The notes under the pieces: model-generated | What the model was told of the DNA's origin: nothing | Databases searched by the model: none | Seen by the model: the letters and a program-made list of their open reading frames with translations, nothing else | Shown: piece by piece, positions 58,606 through 64,000 of the stretch | Numbering within the stretch: position 1 is the stretch's first letter | Layout of the letters: every line of letters starts with the position of its first letter | From: Escherichia phage AV124 | Length of the DNA: 64,000 nucleotides | Sequence record: OR352954 | Direction: 5' to 3' (one strand) | Program-made: the position numbers and the translations under genes

Positions 58606-60282
58606 TTACAGTTGAGCGGCTGCGCGTTCACGAATCGTTGTCAGGTCTTCATCGACAATCAATTTACCGTTGTAGAACACACGACGCAGTTCATTATCTT
58701 CAGACTGTACTTCTTCCAGTTGGCAATTGTCAATCAGTTCTAACTGACCGAACATGTTGCGAACAACTTTGAGGAAGCCTTTCGCAGATTTCTTACTGAG
58801 GTCGGTCTTAGGCTCTTTGACAACCATGATCTGCTGACCATCAATCACAGCACCAGTTGCCTTCACAGCCATGCCCAGTGAATCGCGGGTTGTATACTGA
58901 GTGGTGAAAGAACCGACGCCGTAAACAATGTTGCTGGATGCGAAGCCTTTTTCTTTCAGACGTTCAAAGATGTCTTTTGCACGAGCAACAGTGATTGAGT
59001 CACCGTAGATCAGACCAACGTGGGTGTCGAGGACCTTGTAACCTTTGGAGTTAACTTCACCACCAAAGATCTCCCACAGGCACTGAATTGCACCAATTGC
59101 CTCATGACGAGTAATCTCTTTATCGTCATCATCTGTCTGTGACAGAAGAACATAACGGTCGGTGTCTTTGAAGTATGCAACTTCTGTCTTCAGTGCGAAG
59201 GAACCTTTGTTATAGAAACCGTCTTCTGTTTCGAATTCTTCAATTCGATAACCAGCAATGATATGTTCAGGAATGCCGGAGTCAGGACGGAAAACAACAC
59301 GACCATCACGTGCCATGATTTCCTGTTTCAGGATCGCTGCTGCTTTGGTGATAATAGCCCAGAAATCATAGCTGTCTGCTACGTAGGAAACAAAACCTTT
59401 CGGGAAAATTTCCGTGATATAGCGTTTCAGGAACTCAACTTCAGCCAGAAAACGTTTCTGGTCGAGGCTCATAAACTCTTGTGTTACAGTATTCTCTTCG
59501 ATTTCTTTTACAATAAATCCGATGTTCGTGGTTGCAACAGAGTGTTCAGATGCAGGAATAGAACCAGCAACGAACTTGCCTTTCATGTTGTAATAACGAC
59601 GAGCATACAGAATCGCTGGGATAGTGTCTGTACCCATAGAGTTGATCAGTTGACCGAATTCGCTCTGTGCTGCGTCGTGAGTACCAGCTTCACCGCGATA
59701 TGCGAAGCAGTGGTTCTGGAATGCAACATGGTCGTTGTTATCACAGGTCGCAGCAGCCCATTTTTCGGACAGCTTGCGATACTGCCAGAACGTCGTTGCA
59801 GTTGTGATAGTTTTCCAAGTTTCTGCGGAGATCACACTTTCCAAGAAGTTAGGCAACCAGTAAAAATCCGGGTGCGTATTCTGGATTGTAAACATTGGGA
59901 TCTGAACCGGAGAAAGCGTTCCTTCTGGAAGAGCACGGATTTCCAGAGGAAGATAACCGAGATCATGAAGAGCCTCAAAGCCCCAGGTTTCTACCATGCC
60001 AATGCCGATGCTGGAGTCGCAAACCTCACGATAATCAGCAACCGCTACTTCTTTCGGGAGGTTGAAGAAGTTATTGTTGAACATGTCGATAAGGAACCAC
60101 TTAATAAATCCCTGAAGGCCAGCAAACATGACACGCTGGTCGTTATCAGCGAAGTGAATGAAGTGCTTCGCGTTACGAGGGGTCATGTTATCCTGAACAA
60201 TTTCAGAACGTTTATCATACATGGAGATGTGTGAAGGTTTGTAAAAGTCAGCGAACAGGATAGGACTTTCTTGATTAAGCAT
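58606..60282 (-). CDS. nadV: nicotinamide phosphoribosyltransferase (Nampt)
   Basis: Start at ATG 60282 with RBS AAGGAGAAA; N-terminal LFADFYKPSH resembles the Nampt signature (LLATDSYKVTH in the human enzyme); size about 558 aa; adjacent to prs. Confidence 0.75.
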   Translation of the reverse strand: MLNQESPILFADFYKPSHISMYDKRSEIVQDNMTPRNAKHFIHFADNDQRVMFAGLQGFIKWFLIDMFNNNFFNLPKEVAVADYREVCDSSIGIGMVETWGFEALHDLGYLPLEIRALPEGTLSPVQIPMFTIQNTHPDFYWLPNFLESVISAETWKTITTATTFWQYRKLSEKWAAATCDNNDHVAFQNHCFAYRGEAGTHDAAQSEFGQLINSMGTDTIPAILYARRYYNMKGKFVAGSIPASEHSVATTNIGFIVKEIEENTVTQEFMSLDQKRFLAEVEFLKRYITEIFPKGFVSYVADSYDFWAIITKAAAILKQEIMARDGRVVFRPDSGIPEHIIAGYRIEEFETEDGFYNKGSFALKTEVAYFKDTDRYVLLSQTDDDDKEITRHEAIGAIQCLWEIFGGEVNSKGYKVLDTHVGLIYGDSITVARAKDIFERLKEKGFASSNIVYGVGSFTTQYTTRDSLGMAVKATGAVIDGQQIMVVKEPKTDLSKKSAKGFLKVVRNMFGQLELIDNCQLEEVQSEDNELRRVFYNGKLIVDEDLTTIRERAAAQL

Positions 60283-60343
60283 GTTTTGTTTCTCCTTTGT
60301 TTGTTTAATAGGGCGATTGTACGCCCACTTATTCATTTGTCAA

Positions 60344-61144
60344 TTAAAAGTTTTCGGTCCAGTCGTGGTACGCATAGATTTCATCAACGCCGCCTTCGTA
60401 GATAACTTCTTTGCCGAAGGAAAAGATACCGTGTGTTACGTAAAGAATAACACGTTTTGCACCTTTTGCCTTCAATGCTTGTGCCAGGGCAATGAATGTG
60501 CGACCACCATCGCAGATATCATCGACAATAACACACTCGCGACCTTCAACATCACCGAAAACAGCAGTCCCGGTAATTTCATTTGTCTTCAGATCGCGCA
60601 CTTTTCCAGCTTCCACCAGAGGGAGGCGGAGACGATCGGAAACTTTCTGAGCTTTTTTACGTGCTCCGGCGTCAGGTGCCACGATAACAACATCTTTTCC
60701 AACCAGGCCTTCATGGAATTTCGCAATAAGAGCATCCTGACCACGAATTTTAACGTTGTTAAGTAGTGCTGCGGAGACATCGCTGTGCGGATCATCGACA
60801 ATTATCTTATCAAACCCAAGAGAGTTGACGATATTTGCGAAAACTTTGATGGATAACGCTTCACCAGGTTGCATTACGCGGTCCTGACGTGCATATGGAA
60901 TATATGGCAAGTGCAAAGTAAATTGTGCAGTATGATGGAGACCTTCAAGGCGAGAACATGCATCCACCAACATGGCAAGTGCCATAACATCAGTAGAATT
61001 TTTAATTTTCGCAGTGATGTCTACGAAACCAATACCACCTTTTGGGGTATGCGTCATGTCAATTTTAACCTGTTCTTCACCACCTTTGAACGTAAAGTGA
61101 TCAACAGGAACTACCAGTTTGTTCAGACGAAGTTCTAAACTCAT
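60344..61144 (-). CDS. prs: ribose-phosphate pyrophosphokinase (PRPP synthetase)
   Basis: Type I phosphoribosyltransferase PRPP-binding motif VIVDDICDGGRT plus upstream VIVAPDAGA. Confidence 0.8.
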   Translation of the reverse strand: MSLELRLNKLVVPVDHFTFKGGEEQVKIDMTHTPKGGIGFVDITAKIKNSTDVMALAMLVDACSRLEGLHHTAQFTLHLPYIPYARQDRVMQPGEALSIKVFANIVNSLGFDKIIVDDPHSDVSAALLNNVKIRGQDALIAKFHEGLVGKDVVIVAPDAGARKKAQKVSDRLRLPLVEAGKVRDLKTNEITGTAVFGDVEGRECVIVDDICDGGRTFIALAQALKAKGAKRVILYVTHGIFSFGKEVIYEGGVDEIYAYHDWTENF

Positions 61145-61515
61145 TTCATGTATCCTCTATTAACAATTATGTAATGTCTGGGTTTTGCATTCCCATTTGA
61201 ATCCTGAAAACCAGAACGTATCCTTCGAATGTATCCAAGAGACTCCATCTTTGTCAAGAACTCTGATACTTTCGGTTGTGACTTCTCGCTCAACCCAAAC
61301 AGATGACACAAAGATTTTTGAGATGGGTAAAAAACTTCATCGCCACCATCTGGGTTTAGACTCTTGAAGTAATCATACCTCCACCAAAGCTTGATTAATC
61401 TTTGCAAATCTTGGGGTGAGAGACGATCATCAAAAAGCCACTGCGTCGGAATGGTGACATATGCCCCATCTCTGATATTCACAGTGTTGTCACCAATCTT
61501 TATCTCCACCACCAT
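61141..61515 (-). CDS. hypothetical protein, possible DNA-binding regulator (124 aa)
   Basis: First gene of the minus-strand early unit, next to palindromic operators; the RBS AGGAG directly abuts the ATG, so the true start may be the GTG one or two codons downstream. Confidence 0.45.
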   Translation of the reverse strand: MVVEIKIGDNTVNIRDGAYVTIPTQWLFDDRLSPQDLQRLIKLWWRYDYFKSLNPDGGDEVFYPSQKSLCHLFGLSEKSQPKVSEFLTKMESLGYIRRIRSGFQDSNGNAKPRHYIIVNRGYMK

Positions 61516-61582
61516 CTCCTATTTATTCCGCCATAGGTATAATTAGAGACTACACCACTAACCCAATACTGTCAACTCTAAT

Positions 61583-61624
61583 TATTCCCGATTAGGAATA
61601 TCTAATTATTCCCGAACAGGAATA
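61583..61624. promoter_or_regulatory. tandem palindromic operator candidates (2 x TATTCC-N6-GGAATA)
   Basis: TATTCCCGATTAGGAATA at 61583..61600 and TATTCCCGAACAGGAATA at 61607..61624, each within a CTAATTATTCCCGA direct repeat, 24 bp centre to centre. Confidence 0.45.
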
Positions 61625-61784
61625 CAATACTAACTTATCATTTAAACTAACTTATGATCTTTAAAAACAATAAAACATAAGATCTAAAACAAGATCTTTT
61701 ACTACAGAGTATAAATATTCTATATCATAGAGTCGATGACTCGATGAGTTTGATTATCGTATGAAGAAAAGATGATGTCAAGTG

Positions 61785-61812
61785 TTGACATGAACTTTTT
61801 AACGTGTAAAAT
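61785..61812 (+). promoter_or_regulatory. sigma70-like promoter candidate (TTGACA-N16-TAAAAT)
   Basis: TTGACA at 61785..61790, 16-nt spacer, TAAAAT at 61807..61812, about 25 nt upstream of the ATG at 61838 (RBS AAGGAG between them). Confidence 0.5.
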
Positions 61813-61837
61813 CTAGGTAATGTTAAAGGAGATTGCT

Positions 61838-62161
61838 ATGTTTTCAAGTAAAGAAACAAAAGTTATTGGTGAAATAGTCTGTGGTAAGCCACGACGGAAA
61901 ACGGAGCAGACCGATGAAGAGAAGACCAAGCTGATGATGATACGTGAAGTGTATCATGAATGTGGTGAAGACCACAATGTGTGCGTGGTATTACCAGATG
62001 GTATACCAGTTGACAAGGTCTTCGATAACTTCTATGCTTCGATAAAGTCGAGACTAGCTCGACGTAATGTGTGTGTAACATATGCAAAGGACTTGACTGT
62101 GGAACACATCGAGAACAACAATGTTGTAGTGGATCTAAGCGAAATCCGTATAACGCTCTAG
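61838..62161 (+). CDS. hypothetical early protein (107 aa)
   Basis: Start at ATG 61838 (MFSSKETK) with RBS AAGGAGA. Confidence 0.55.
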   Translation: MFSSKETKVIGEIVCGKPRRKTEQTDEEKTKLMMIREVYHECGEDHNVCVVLPDGIPVDKVFDNFYASIKSRLARRNVCVTYAKDLTVEHIENNNVVVDLSEIRITL

Positions 62162-62278
62162 GACGCATCCTAAGGCGTTATAAGTGTGTGGTGGTACACT
62201 TGGGTTACCAACCCGTATTAAATTAAATACAGGGCCTCCCAGAGGCTCTGAGAGGTATTGTGGAGGATTATTTTGGAT

Positions 62279-62548
62279 ATGAAGAGCATTACCCGTGATG
62301 ACTCCATCTATAAAGGTGCTTATCTAGCTCTGAGAGACATCATGAAGTCTATGGAGAAAAAGTATGGTGTGAAACTGTACTTAGATAGCCGGGTAGACTG
62401 GGGAAAGACATGGATGGATGCTTCAGTTTACATTCATGGTGATAGGCATATCGTTAACTTGGTGTGCATGAAACTTATTGTGTGGCAGCACTACCAGAAA
62501 ATAAGGGATGGAATTCTGTTCGCCTACCCCGCTGAGGATATGAAATGA
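62279..62548 (+). CDS. hypothetical protein (89 aa)
   Basis: Start at ATG 62279 (MKSITRD); RBS GGAGG upstream; track start 62258 is TTG. Confidence 0.5.
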   Translation: MKSITRDDSIYKGAYLALRDIMKSMEKKYGVKLYLDSRVDWGKTWMDASVYIHGDRHIVNLVCMKLIVWQHYQKIRDGILFAYPAEDMK

Positions 62549-62829
62549 AGAAAGATATCAAGAAACCTGTCAAGGAAAAGTTTGATACCTCTGCATTTGT
62601 GTTCACAACCGATGTGGGTGTGATTAAAGATGCTCTACAGCTACTGAATGAACAGGAGGCAGATCCTGAAGCGGAACCACTGACAAAGGATCAGATCTAT
62701 TGGATGGGTTGGTGGGAGCTTAACATGCCGGAGGTTGATCGTCGCGGATTAACACGTGTATTGACATGTGCTCAGGAAAATGCTGCACTGGGTCTGTATA
62801 AGAAAACTACGAAGAGGAAGAAAAAATGA
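62545..62829 (+). CDS. hypothetical protein (94 aa)
   Basis: ATGA overlap with upstream gene. Confidence 0.5.
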   Translation: MKKDIKKPVKEKFDTSAFVFTTDVGVIKDALQLLNEQEADPEAEPLTKDQIYWMGWWELNMPEVDRRGLTRVLTCAQENAALGLYKKTTKRKKK

Positions 62830-63065
62830 GCAGACTTGCAAAACTAAACAGAAGAAAGAAAATGTTGAAAGAAAAGCAGAAAAACATCACGGCTACTTTC
62901 CAAGTATGCCGAGAGGCTATGAAGGCAAATCTGATAACACCTTCGCAGAGACAGTTGATCCGTGATATTCTTCGTCCTGTGCTCCACGACCTTGAAGGTG
63001 AAGTTCGTGATGTTACACTTCATATTCAAGAGGAACTTGTAAAAAGATATCAGGAGGATACATGA
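62826..63065 (+). CDS. hypothetical protein (79 aa)
   Basis: ATGA overlap with upstream gene. Confidence 0.5.
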   Translation: MSRLAKLNRRKKMLKEKQKNITATFQVCREAMKANLITPSQRQLIRDILRPVLHDLEGEVRDVTLHIQEELVKRYQEDT

Positions 63066-63655
63066 TCGACCACGTCACGTCAGACACGCATTGGTGGCAT
63101 ACCAACATCCTTGGTTTCCCATCGTGTGATAAATTCCGTAAGAACCTGTACGGTCCAAAAGAAGACCGTGAAAGTCTGTATGCAATGAATGAAGGTATGA
63201 TTGAAATCTGGAATAAGCACGTTAAACCAGATGATGTCGTAGCGCACCTTGGTGACTTCGTGATTGCTTACGGACGTTACATGGAGCCTCGCGTTCGTGA
63301 CATCCTTGAAAAGATCAACGGAAAGATCATTCTGGTTGGTGGTAACCATGACAACCGAGATACGAAACGTATCTTCCGTGAATTCGGTCATGAAGTTGTT
63401 GATTATAAAGAGATTAACTTCAGCACTGGAAAAGAGAAGGTGCATGTGTGTATGTCTCACTATCCGTTCGCATCGTGGAACAAAGCACACCACGGGTCAG
63501 TTATGTTGCACGGGCATAGCCACGGCTCCTATACAGCCCCCGGTGGACGTATTCTCGATGTAGGTTGGGATGTTCATGGTCGTCCTCTGACGATGCGTGA
63601 GGCCGTCCTGATGTGCCTCAAAAAACCAATCTACACTGCTGACCACGGAGAATAA
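63062..63655 (+). CDS. calcineurin-like metallophosphoesterase
   Basis: Metal-ligand motifs in canonical order: SDTHWWH (DxH), LGDFV (GD), GGNHD (GNHD), then His cluster HGHSHG. Confidence 0.65.
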   Translation: MIDHVTSDTHWWHTNILGFPSCDKFRKNLYGPKEDRESLYAMNEGMIEIWNKHVKPDDVVAHLGDFVIAYGRYMEPRVRDILEKINGKIILVGGNHDNRDTKRIFREFGHEVVDYKEINFSTGKEKVHVCMSHYPFASWNKAHHGSVMLHGHSHGSYTAPGGRILDVGWDVHGRPLTMREAVLMCLKKPIYTADHGE

Positions 63656-63656
63656 G

Positions 63657-64000
63657 ATGCATAACAAAGAACGAAATTTCATAGCACGTAACACGGCGAA
63701 GTCTTTCTTCGCTACTATTCACATTGCCGGGGATTATGCTCAGGCCGAGAATTTGTGTCGCCAGTGGGTTATGCAAGGTGCTTGTGTGCAGATTGCTCCA
63801 TGCACCTATGTTTACACAGGTGGTGTCGAAGATGGTATGACTGTGCGGTTGATGCAGTATCCACGTTTCCAGCGTCAGGAGCATGAGATATTATCAATGG
63901 CTGTCGAACTTGGAAAATATCTTGCTCAGGAGATGTGCCAGATAAGCTTCAGTATAGAAACTCCTTATAATACAACATATTATCAGGCGGAAGGTTATGA
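63657..64000 (+). CDS. hypothetical protein, 3-prime partial
   Basis: ATG at 63657 (MHNKERNF...) immediately after the upstream stop; frame open to window end. Confidence 0.4.
   Translation, partial: MHNKERNFIARNTAKSFFATIHIAGDYAQAENLCRQWVMQGACVQIAPCTYVYTGGVEDGMTVRLMQYPRFQRQEHEILSMAVELGKYLAQEMCQISFSIETPYNTTYYQAEGY

Follow-up and report, generated by a model that had tools for sequence, protein, structure and literature searches.

We examined a 64,000-nucleotide stretch of Escherichia phage AV124 (sequence record OR352954; called the window below) and in it the intergenic region at 61516-61837, which separates a leftward from a rightward transcription unit. Bases 60300-63700 of the window share 96.5% identity with Klebsiella phage vB_KpnM_KB57 (Mydovirus, Vequintavirinae), and by its sequence the window is that of a KB57-like, Klebsiella-type phage of the same genus and subfamily. 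The region is the gap between the counterparts of KB57_095 (leftward) and KB57_096 (rightward). Here a leftward block of about 46 kb, which runs from the gene for a small winged-helix protein through prs, nadV, tRNAs and lysis genes to the structural genes, meets a rightward block of about 35 kb. We completed the window with the remainder of KB57 to a pseudo-genome of about 145 kb, and all genome-wide counts given below refer to these 145 kb.

The winged-helix gene (minus strand, 61141-61515; PHROGs family phrog_8453) opens the leftward unit, and prs and nadV follow it. The initial annotation of this DNA assigned it a product of 124 amino acids (aa). The gene is real, but the product is more likely 122 aa long: the open reading frame gives 124 aa from ATG 61515 and 122 aa from GTG 61509, and translation probably starts at the GTG. 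We favor this start because the ribosome-binding site AGGAG (61516-61520, minus strand; kept in relatives) directly abuts ATG 61515. The same AGGAG lies 6 nt upstream of GTG 61509, an ideal spacing, and the GTG start agrees with the annotation of KB57_095 (122 aa).

Two exact copies of the palindrome TATTCC-N6-GGAATA lie upstream of this gene, at 61583-61600 and 61607-61624. Their start-to-start distance is 24 bp, and both are embedded in a 24-bp direct repeat, TCTAATTATTCCCGAnnAGGAATA (61577-61600 and 61601-61624), just as the initial annotation had described. That description stopped at two sites, however, and overlooked a third copy, TATTCCGCCATAGGTATA, at 61524-61541, which carries one mismatch and is inverted relative to the asymmetric CTAATT flank. 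We refer to the promoter-proximal copy as site 1 (TCTAAT followed by TATTCC-CGATTA-GGAATA), to the distal copy as site 2 (TCTAAT followed by TATTCC-CGAACA-GGAATA) and to the inverted copy as site 3 (TATTCC-GCCATA-GGTATA with an ATTAGAG flank, together 61524-61548). With up to one mismatch allowed, three copies of the pattern were observed within 101 bp, against 0.10 ± 0.30 expected per 64 kb. A motif search across the rest of the genome, which had been proposed as a check, found the palindrome, with up to one mismatch, at these three places only.

The three sites surround a promoter that is additional to the initial list. This proximal leftward promoter, P_L1 (minus strand, 61547-61575), was read from the sequence as a sigma70-type promoter with TTGACA (61575-61570), 17 nt and TAGTCT (61552-61547), and it is located between site 3 on one side and sites 1 and 2 on the other. 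Site 1 is centered about 16 bp upstream of the -35 element, while site 3 sits between the -10 element and the ribosome-binding site of the winged-helix gene; relative to P_L1, the sites fall at about -75, -51 and +1 to +17. A distal leftward promoter, P_L2 (minus strand, 61781-61753; TTGACA-17-GATAAT, 11/12 positions), is likewise an addition. It is kept in phages Ro1, FENT2 and PVP-SE1 and missing from Hena1, and its transcripts would traverse the AT-rich block described below as well as the sites. The near-consensus TTGACA-N16-TAAAAT promoter that had been reported, here P_R, is present at 61785-61812 (plus strand), matches at 11 of 12 positions and is kept in relatives. The -35 elements of P_R and P_L2 stand back to back with 3 bp between them. 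A role of the palindromes as operators for both divergent units is not supported, since they flank P_L1 only and lie more than 160 bp (160-260 bp) from P_R. Autoregulation by the winged-helix protein is likely on this arrangement, because the promoter of its gene is flanked by sites on both sides, with site 3 over the predicted start.

Are the sites and the protein found together in other phages? By tblastn, the protein was found in 73 phage records, from 100% down to about 34% identity. These span Mydovirus, Seunavirus, Henunavirus, Avunavirus, Certrevirus, Serratia phages, a few unclassified Escherichia phages and FBKp34 (Stephanstirmvirinae). Throughout the loci examined, a divergent unit begins with the winged-helix gene. 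We then read 14 phage upstream regions and one locus on a metagenomic contig (L024) side by side. All 14 upstream regions follow a common plan. Each has a cluster of GATC/AGATCT, a run rich in T (ATGTTTTATTGTTTT or a variant of it), a pair of ATAAGTTAGT repeats or, instead of these, large inverted repeats of AT-rich sequence, and one or two palindromes of the form TRTNCC-N6(7)-GGNAYA; a perfect TTGACA is part of the plan in 13 of the 14 loci. The same 13/14 count applies to the combination of a perfect -35 element with a TAnnnT -10 element at 16-17 nt, and the P_L1 equivalent in FBKp34 was annotated by its depositors. TRTNCC-N6-GGNAYA is kept upstream of the TTGACA promoter in the 14 related phages and in L024. 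The 24-bp tandem spacing recurs in five relatives and in L024, and site 3 is kept in Ro1, FENT2, PVP-SE1 and Hena1. The L024 locus (840-1080), which belongs to family member P0052, has tandem sites 24 bp apart, an AT-rich stretch containing GATC, a promoter and an equivalent, inverted third site (motif TGTTCC/TGTTAC-N6-GGAACA).

The half-sites are not invariant, and they vary symmetrically: TATTCC/GGAATA, TGTCCC/GGGACA and TATGCC/GGCATA differ at positions 2/17 and 4/15. We compared these changes with the protein sequences over 16 loci. Residue 80 directly follows the invariant Ser79, where the recognition helix is predicted to begin. It is Gln wherever the site reads TAT...ATA and Arg wherever it reads TGT...ACA, in 16 of 16 loci, one of them metagenomic. 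Gln80 is found in both the KB57 group and the UPEC06 group, which are distinct clades, and this implies at least two independent switches. The covariation of residue 80 with base 2 is the strongest evidence, read from sequence, that the adjacent protein binds the sites, and on its account the protein almost certainly does so. We conclude that the palindromes are almost certainly real, conserved binding sites for the winged-helix protein. As covariation and conservation indicate, the initial suggestion of operator-like sites with an adjacent regulator is correct on binding and probably also on autoregulation; the type of protein is taken up below.

Symmetric changes that look compensatory and preserve an inverted repeat might also be expected of RNA hairpins in the P_L2 leader, or of DNA cruciforms, rather than of protein sites. 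P_L2 would transcribe the sites, and the leader folds slightly better than its shuffles (z = -1.95). However, the stems are just 6 bp long and AU-rich, and an A.A mismatch (TATACC...GGAATA) sits at the stem center in 6 of 22 sites, including all three sites of Hena1. Hena1 keeps its sites although it has no P_L2; base 2 covaries with an amino acid of the recognition helix; and there was no Rfam match, a scan of 61100-62300 at E values up to 1 giving zero hits. With a fold z of just -1.95 and recurring A.A mismatches in the stems, we rejected the RNA-hairpin reading, and we consider hairpins or cruciforms very improbable.

What do the bound sites act on? Their spacing differs sharply on the two sides. 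Toward the promoter, site 1 lies anywhere from 3 to 11 bp from the -35 element across all orthologs. Toward the AT-rich block, the distance from site 2 to CAATACTAACTTAT is constant in an alignment of six phages, FBKp34 included, without indels. Rigid spacing on the AT-rich side and loose spacing at the -35 element suggest that the sites are coupled mechanically to the AT-rich DNA and not to RNA polymerase. This bears on the possibility that the protein is a transcription activator, recruiting RNA polymerase from about -51 and -75 to a weak P_L1 or serving an early-to-middle switch. Sites 1 and 2 do lie upstream of the -35 element, and P_L1 combines a perfect -35 with a weak -10 (TAGTCT). A variation of 3-11 bp is nevertheless incompatible with activation that depends on the face of the helix, the third site over the transcription start suggests repression, and the genome holds no further target promoter. 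We regard activation as improbable.

A plain autoregulatory operator is harder to dismiss. On this account, the protein represses the leftward early operon, that is, itself, prs and nadV, and the AT-rich block consists of promoters and UP-like DNA, with no origin. The sites bracket P_L1, with site 3 over the predicted start, and a site stands next to the -35 element in every ortholog. The genome has no target for the motif beyond this region, as an autoregulator predicts; prs-nadV synteny is kept in most relatives; the protein has no helicase-recruiting domain; and one depositor annotated the ortholog in PcCB7V as a "transcriptional regulator." The loose promoter spacing and rigid spacing on the AT-rich side do not fit this account, nor do UPEC06-like phages, which retain the module without prs-nadV downstream. 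Two further lines of evidence, the relationships of the protein and the recurrence of the AT-rich sequences elsewhere in the genome, also bear on it.

We therefore turn to the protein itself. An AlphaFold2 model (pLDDT 89) predicts a beta-hairpin followed by a winged helix. The modeled fold is of the type seen in the N-terminal domains of DnaD and RepA_N proteins. In PHROGs, the protein belongs to phrog_8453, a family of unknown function, and its weaker matches are solely to DnaD-like helicase-loader and replication-initiation families. There were no HTH_3/Xre matches, and a sequence search of the PDB returned nothing below E 0.1. An exhaustive profile search of 1.84 billion proteins gave 26 cluster representatives. 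Remote, longer relatives match the initiator PHROGs 428, 270, 8102, 2880, 678 (O-like) and 186 and the Pfam families HTH_36, RP-C and DUF6945. Named matches in BFVD include a replication initiator, protein O and RepA-like proteins, together with generic helix-turn-helix proteins and a few regulator-type names; among them is also the protein that phage Hena1 encodes at module B, described below. Three long family members (P0051, P0052 and P0053; 233-253 aa) carry an acidic tail that ends in ...DTVPF, ...DWVPF or ...IDPPF. This tail resembles the C-terminal acidic tip of SSB, which docks replication proteins. Because its fold and profile matches fall among the N-terminal domains of replication initiators, the winged-helix protein appears to be of the replication-initiator class rather than a cI/Cro/Xre-type regulator. 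That its fold and profile relatives are initiators and not regulators also speaks against a plain operator. Our literature search found no paper on this winged-helix family or these sites.

The AT-rich block begins almost immediately beyond site 2. Two direct 10-mers, ACTAACTTAT, at 61629-61638 and 61646-61655, are nearly invariant across genera and stand at a fixed distance from site 2. They are followed by a candidate DNA-unwinding element at 61656-61698, made up of a GATC (61656-61659), an A/T run (ATGTTTTATTGTTTTT, minus strand) and the palindrome AAGATCT-N6-AGATCTT, which had been reported at 61677-61697 and is in fact at 61679-61698. The lowest-GC 100-bp window of the genome (19%) begins at 61626, 2 bp past site 2, and 61669-61729 is the third least stable 60-bp stretch of the genome (z about +4.1). 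The minus-strand sequence of the block is AAGATCTTGTTTT-AGATCTTATGTTTT-ATTGTTTTTAAA-GATCATAAGTTAG, a series of tandem, GATCT-led, T-rich units that run toward the protein sites. GATCTTATGTTTT, in the candidate unwinding element, matches the 13-mer consensus of oriC at 10 of 11 positions. By this scoring, the block holds one 10/11 and one or two 9/11 matches, the real oriC scores 10, 10 and 9, and five matches of at least 10/11 occur genome-wide. AGATCT is the single-strand DnaA 6-mer (ssDUE DnaA box) of the oriC unwinding element (PMC4285127). Two or more sites next to an easily melted, AT-rich element, here two plus one, is the layout of an iteron origin. PVP-SE1, FBKp34 and the Serratia phages have a T-tract (TTTTTA/TTTTTG) in the spacer of the sites. 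In eight of the loci compared (L006-L012 and L015), from UPEC06-like phages, Certrevirus and Serratia phages, two large inverted repeats, AT-rich and with TGAATG..ATGAAT at their centers (for example ATAATTATTATGAATGAATATGAATAATAATTAT), take the place of the ACTAACTTAT repeats about 150-250 bp upstream of the gene.

Is this block simply what an AT-rich promoter region looks like? Four of its elements, AGATCT.?ATGTTTTA, TTATTGTTTT, an AGTTAGT pair (within 40 bp) and an AGATCT pair, each occur exactly twice in the 145 kb, once here and once in a second place that we call module B. Module B lies outside the window, at 129.5-129.8 kb of KB57 (L017:43513-43827), directly after KB57_217, and it contains the least stable 60 bp of the genome. 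These shared motifs were found by pattern search; a blastn-short comparison of the region with the genome gave short chance words only. KB57_217 is a protein of 98 aa, with an annotation as replication initiation protein, that matches HTH_36 with 36.1 bits, which passes the cutoff, and phrog_8102, "replication initiation protein," at 1.7e-34. It also matches phrog_8453 at 6.7e-6 and is therefore a distant paralog of the winged-helix protein. Between the module-B gene and the cassette, next to an AT-rich run, lie repeats that vary with the protein allele: CCGGACA three times in KB57, also written (A/G)TGTCCGG x3, TGCAAAATTTGCA twice in PVP-SE1 and TGACAAATTTGTCA in Hena1. The module is conserved in PVP-SE1, 4MG and Hena1. 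Separately, the module-B palindrome ATCCACTTGTGGAT holds a DnaA box with one mismatch, TCATCCACA.

The module B locus is not a divergent promoter region. Since the cassette recurs at such a locus, it does not appear to be just promoter DNA, and its recurrence beside a paralogous, initiator-type protein is a further point against a plain autoregulatory operator. We regard the plain operator as the main rival reading, to be taken seriously though less likely than not.

In six Escherichia phages (UPEC06, A7_1, A5-4, A73, W70 and LTH01), each genome gave two matches to its own intergenic region, which suggests a duplicated cassette there too.

We propose instead that the region is a central control region in which an iteron-type replication origin is combined with the gene for a minimal, autoregulated initiator of RepA_N/DnaD-like type, a proposal to which we give an even chance. 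It builds on observed features: the sequence anatomy, the uniqueness of the motifs in the genome, their conservation, the covariation, the fold class and the second, paralogous module. Binding, autorepression, unwinding and origin activity are steps that we infer from these. In outline, host sigma70 RNA polymerase would start leftward at P_L1 (and P_L2) and rightward at P_R. The first leftward product would be the 122-aa winged helix with its RepA_N/DnaD-N-terminal fold, and a dimer of it would bind the tandem 24-bp repeats at 61577-61624 and the inverted third copy at 61524-61541 over its own start. Occupancy of site 3, possibly looped to the upstream pair, would limit the protein's own synthesis. 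The tandem pair would be held at its fixed distance from the ACTAACTTAT repeats and from the most AT-rich stretch (61629-61698) with its oriC-like GATCT/T-rich repeats. Protein bound there could help to open the AT-rich stretch for loading of the phage helicase and primase, and transcription from P_L2 across this stretch may assist the opening.

Several observations weigh against an origin. The Pfam match of the winged-helix protein to HTH_36 (PF13730; 16.9 bits, E 0.0055) does not reach the cutoff of 25 bits, and RepA_N (PF06970) was unmatched in a Pfam scan at E values up to 1. Foldseek found only weak matches in the PDB (best E 4e-3), the plasmid collection held no homolog, and winged helices are frequent in repressors too. 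The protein consists of one domain (122 aa), without the C-terminal, partner-recruiting domain of RepA_N proteins, lambda O and plasmid Rep. There are just two plus one sites, fewer than in typical iteron origins, every ortholog has a site near the gene's own promoter, which fits plain autoregulation as well, and AT-rich divergent promoter regions are common. No DnaA box like TTATCCACA was found with up to one mismatch in 61500-61850, a test made uninformative by 62 near-matches genome-wide, and no IHF consensus WATCAANNNNTTR was found in the region with up to one mismatch. GATC density is unexceptional for this genome, where many 60-bp windows hold three; only the cross-phage conservation of the cluster, and the paired AGATCT, are informative. 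The cumulative GC-skew has its global minimum at 61705, but this coincides with the switch in transcription direction, is hence confounded and carries little weight. In the related phage rV5, GC skew tracks the direction of transcription, and an origin was sought by skew analysis but none was defined (PMC3606486). We keep our confidence in the origin at an even level because its activity is inferred only, the recruiting domain is missing, the skew is confounded, DnaA boxes and IHF sites are absent and GATC is unremarkable.

A bolder version of the proposal takes in both modules. Phages of the Mydovirus/Seunavirus type would have two origins, each with its own minimal, single-domain RepA_N-like initiator (about 95-125 aa) and a shared, oriC-imitating unwinding cassette (the AGATCT pair, the ATGTTTTA/TTATTGTTTT run and the AGTTAGT pair). 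The replisome would be recruited by host factors that bind the DNA-unwinding element or the SSB tip, or by a phage helicase of superfamily 1B (SF1B), and not by a C-terminal domain of the initiator. We consider this version unlikely.

The layout invites comparison with known origins. In iteron plasmids of the pSC101, F, P1 and R6K type, an unwinding element is followed by repeats, a promoter with an inverted repeat and the rep gene, and the initiator is an autorepressor. The phage locus has a like order, with an AT-rich, 13-mer-like element, repeats predicted to be bound by an initiator, a promoter with an inverted repeat and the gene. Plasmid Rep proteins, with their two winged-helix domains, occupy iterons as monomers, and their origins usually have more iterons together with DnaA boxes and IHF sites; unlike them, the phage region yielded neither DnaA boxes nor IHF sites. 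The origin of lambda has tandem dyad repeats of 18-19 bp at a spacing of about 24 bp, bound by winged-helix dimers of O, an AT-rich neighbor and transcriptional activation. The phage sites share the dyad repeats, the spacing of about 24 bp and the AT-rich neighbor and, on our proposal, would also share binding by winged-helix dimers and activation by transcription; remote family members match O-like PHROGs. However, the lambda origin is part of the O gene, with four repeats, and O has a C-terminal domain that recruits P-DnaB, which the phage winged-helix protein lacks. A likeness to lambda OR/OL is also evident in palindromes of about 17-18 bp at 23-24 bp spacing, in a divergent promoter region with a small DNA-binding protein adjacent, which is the picture that the initial annotation drew. 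Unlike OR/OL with cI and Cro, the sites here do not overlap P_R, the winged helix is of the initiator type and the phage is virulent. With the unwinding element of oriC (13-mers GATCTnTTnTTTT), the block shares tandem, GATCT-led, T-rich repeats on one strand, with the same polarity toward the initiator sites (box R1 in oriC). Unlike oriC, it has no adjacent 9-mer DnaA box, and its repeats are spaced by 12 and 25 bp against 15-16 bp.

A likeness in fold is seen to RepA_N systems, namely RepA of staphylococcal pSK41/pTZ2162 (PDB 4pta) and RepA of the phage-inducible chromosomal island-like element (PLE) of Vibrio cholerae (4ro3), in which the N-terminal domain binds DNA as a dimer. Structure 4ro3 is the N-terminal domain of PLE RepA, which binds iterons in electrophoretic mobility shift assays and is needed for PLE replication (PMC7145576). 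[quoted passage not shown] PLE replication requires a phage SF1B helicase, and the present phage group encodes a PIF1/RecD-like helicase, as seen in rV5 (PMC3606486). Unlike RepA_N proteins, the phage protein has no Pfam RepA_N match and no C-terminal domain and is 122 aa long; its sites are upstream of the gene, around the promoter, and not inside it; and the host element is a large, virulent myovirus of Enterobacterales. The proposal extends known categories (iteron origins, RepA_N-type initiators and autoregulated Rep) and does not constitute a new one.

Transposon mapping of the vequintavirus Bas54 (HIDEN-SEQ) revealed a divergent intergenic region of about 2 kb without insertions (bioRxiv 10.1101/2025.11.20.689424). 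We set these essentiality data aside as not transferable, since rV5-type phages do not have this protein and region. The Bas54 region is non-homologous and may, by analogy, have a similar role.

Vequintavirinae and their relatives are widely used as candidate therapeutic phages for Klebsiella, Salmonella, E. coli and Cronobacter. For this group, the analysis provides a precise candidate origin, a predicted cognate DNA-binding protein with residue 80 as its specificity determinant, and a second, paralogous module. If the proposal is true, RepA_N/DnaD-like initiators, which are rare in Gram-negative systems, would extend to large virulent enterobacterial phages in a single-domain form. The system could then supply parts for phage engineering, such as ori cassettes and orthogonal protein-operator pairs.

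The remaining features of the region lie mostly on its rightward side. The palindrome GAGTC-GAT-GACTC (GAGTCGATGACTC) was confirmed just downstream of the P_L2 start, at 61730-61742 and not at 61729-61741 as first given, and it occurs once in the 145 kb. It is kept in Ro1 and FENT2, and in PVP-SE1 a double change preserves its symmetry (GAGCC-AGT-GGCTC). Hena1 has a related palindrome, GAGTCACTC, within the spacer of its rightward promoter. No conserved small open reading frames of at least 20 aa were found inside the intergenic region. On the leftward side, prs (ribose-phosphate pyrophosphokinase) and nadV (nicotinamide phosphoribosyltransferase) occupy 58606-61144 of the minus strand, directly after the winged-helix gene. 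They form an NAD+ salvage pair that is syntenic in most relatives and is not downstream of the gene in UPEC06-like phages. The first rightward gene (plus strand, 61838-62161) is the KB57_096 counterpart; it encodes 107 aa of the function-unknown family phrog_4868 and has the ribosome-binding site AAGGAG at 61826-61831. Between the first and second rightward genes, at 62234-62255, lies a G+C-rich stem-loop with a 9-bp stem (CCTCTCAGAG/CTCTGGGAGG), which in a terminator scan gave a terminator-like score on the minus strand only.

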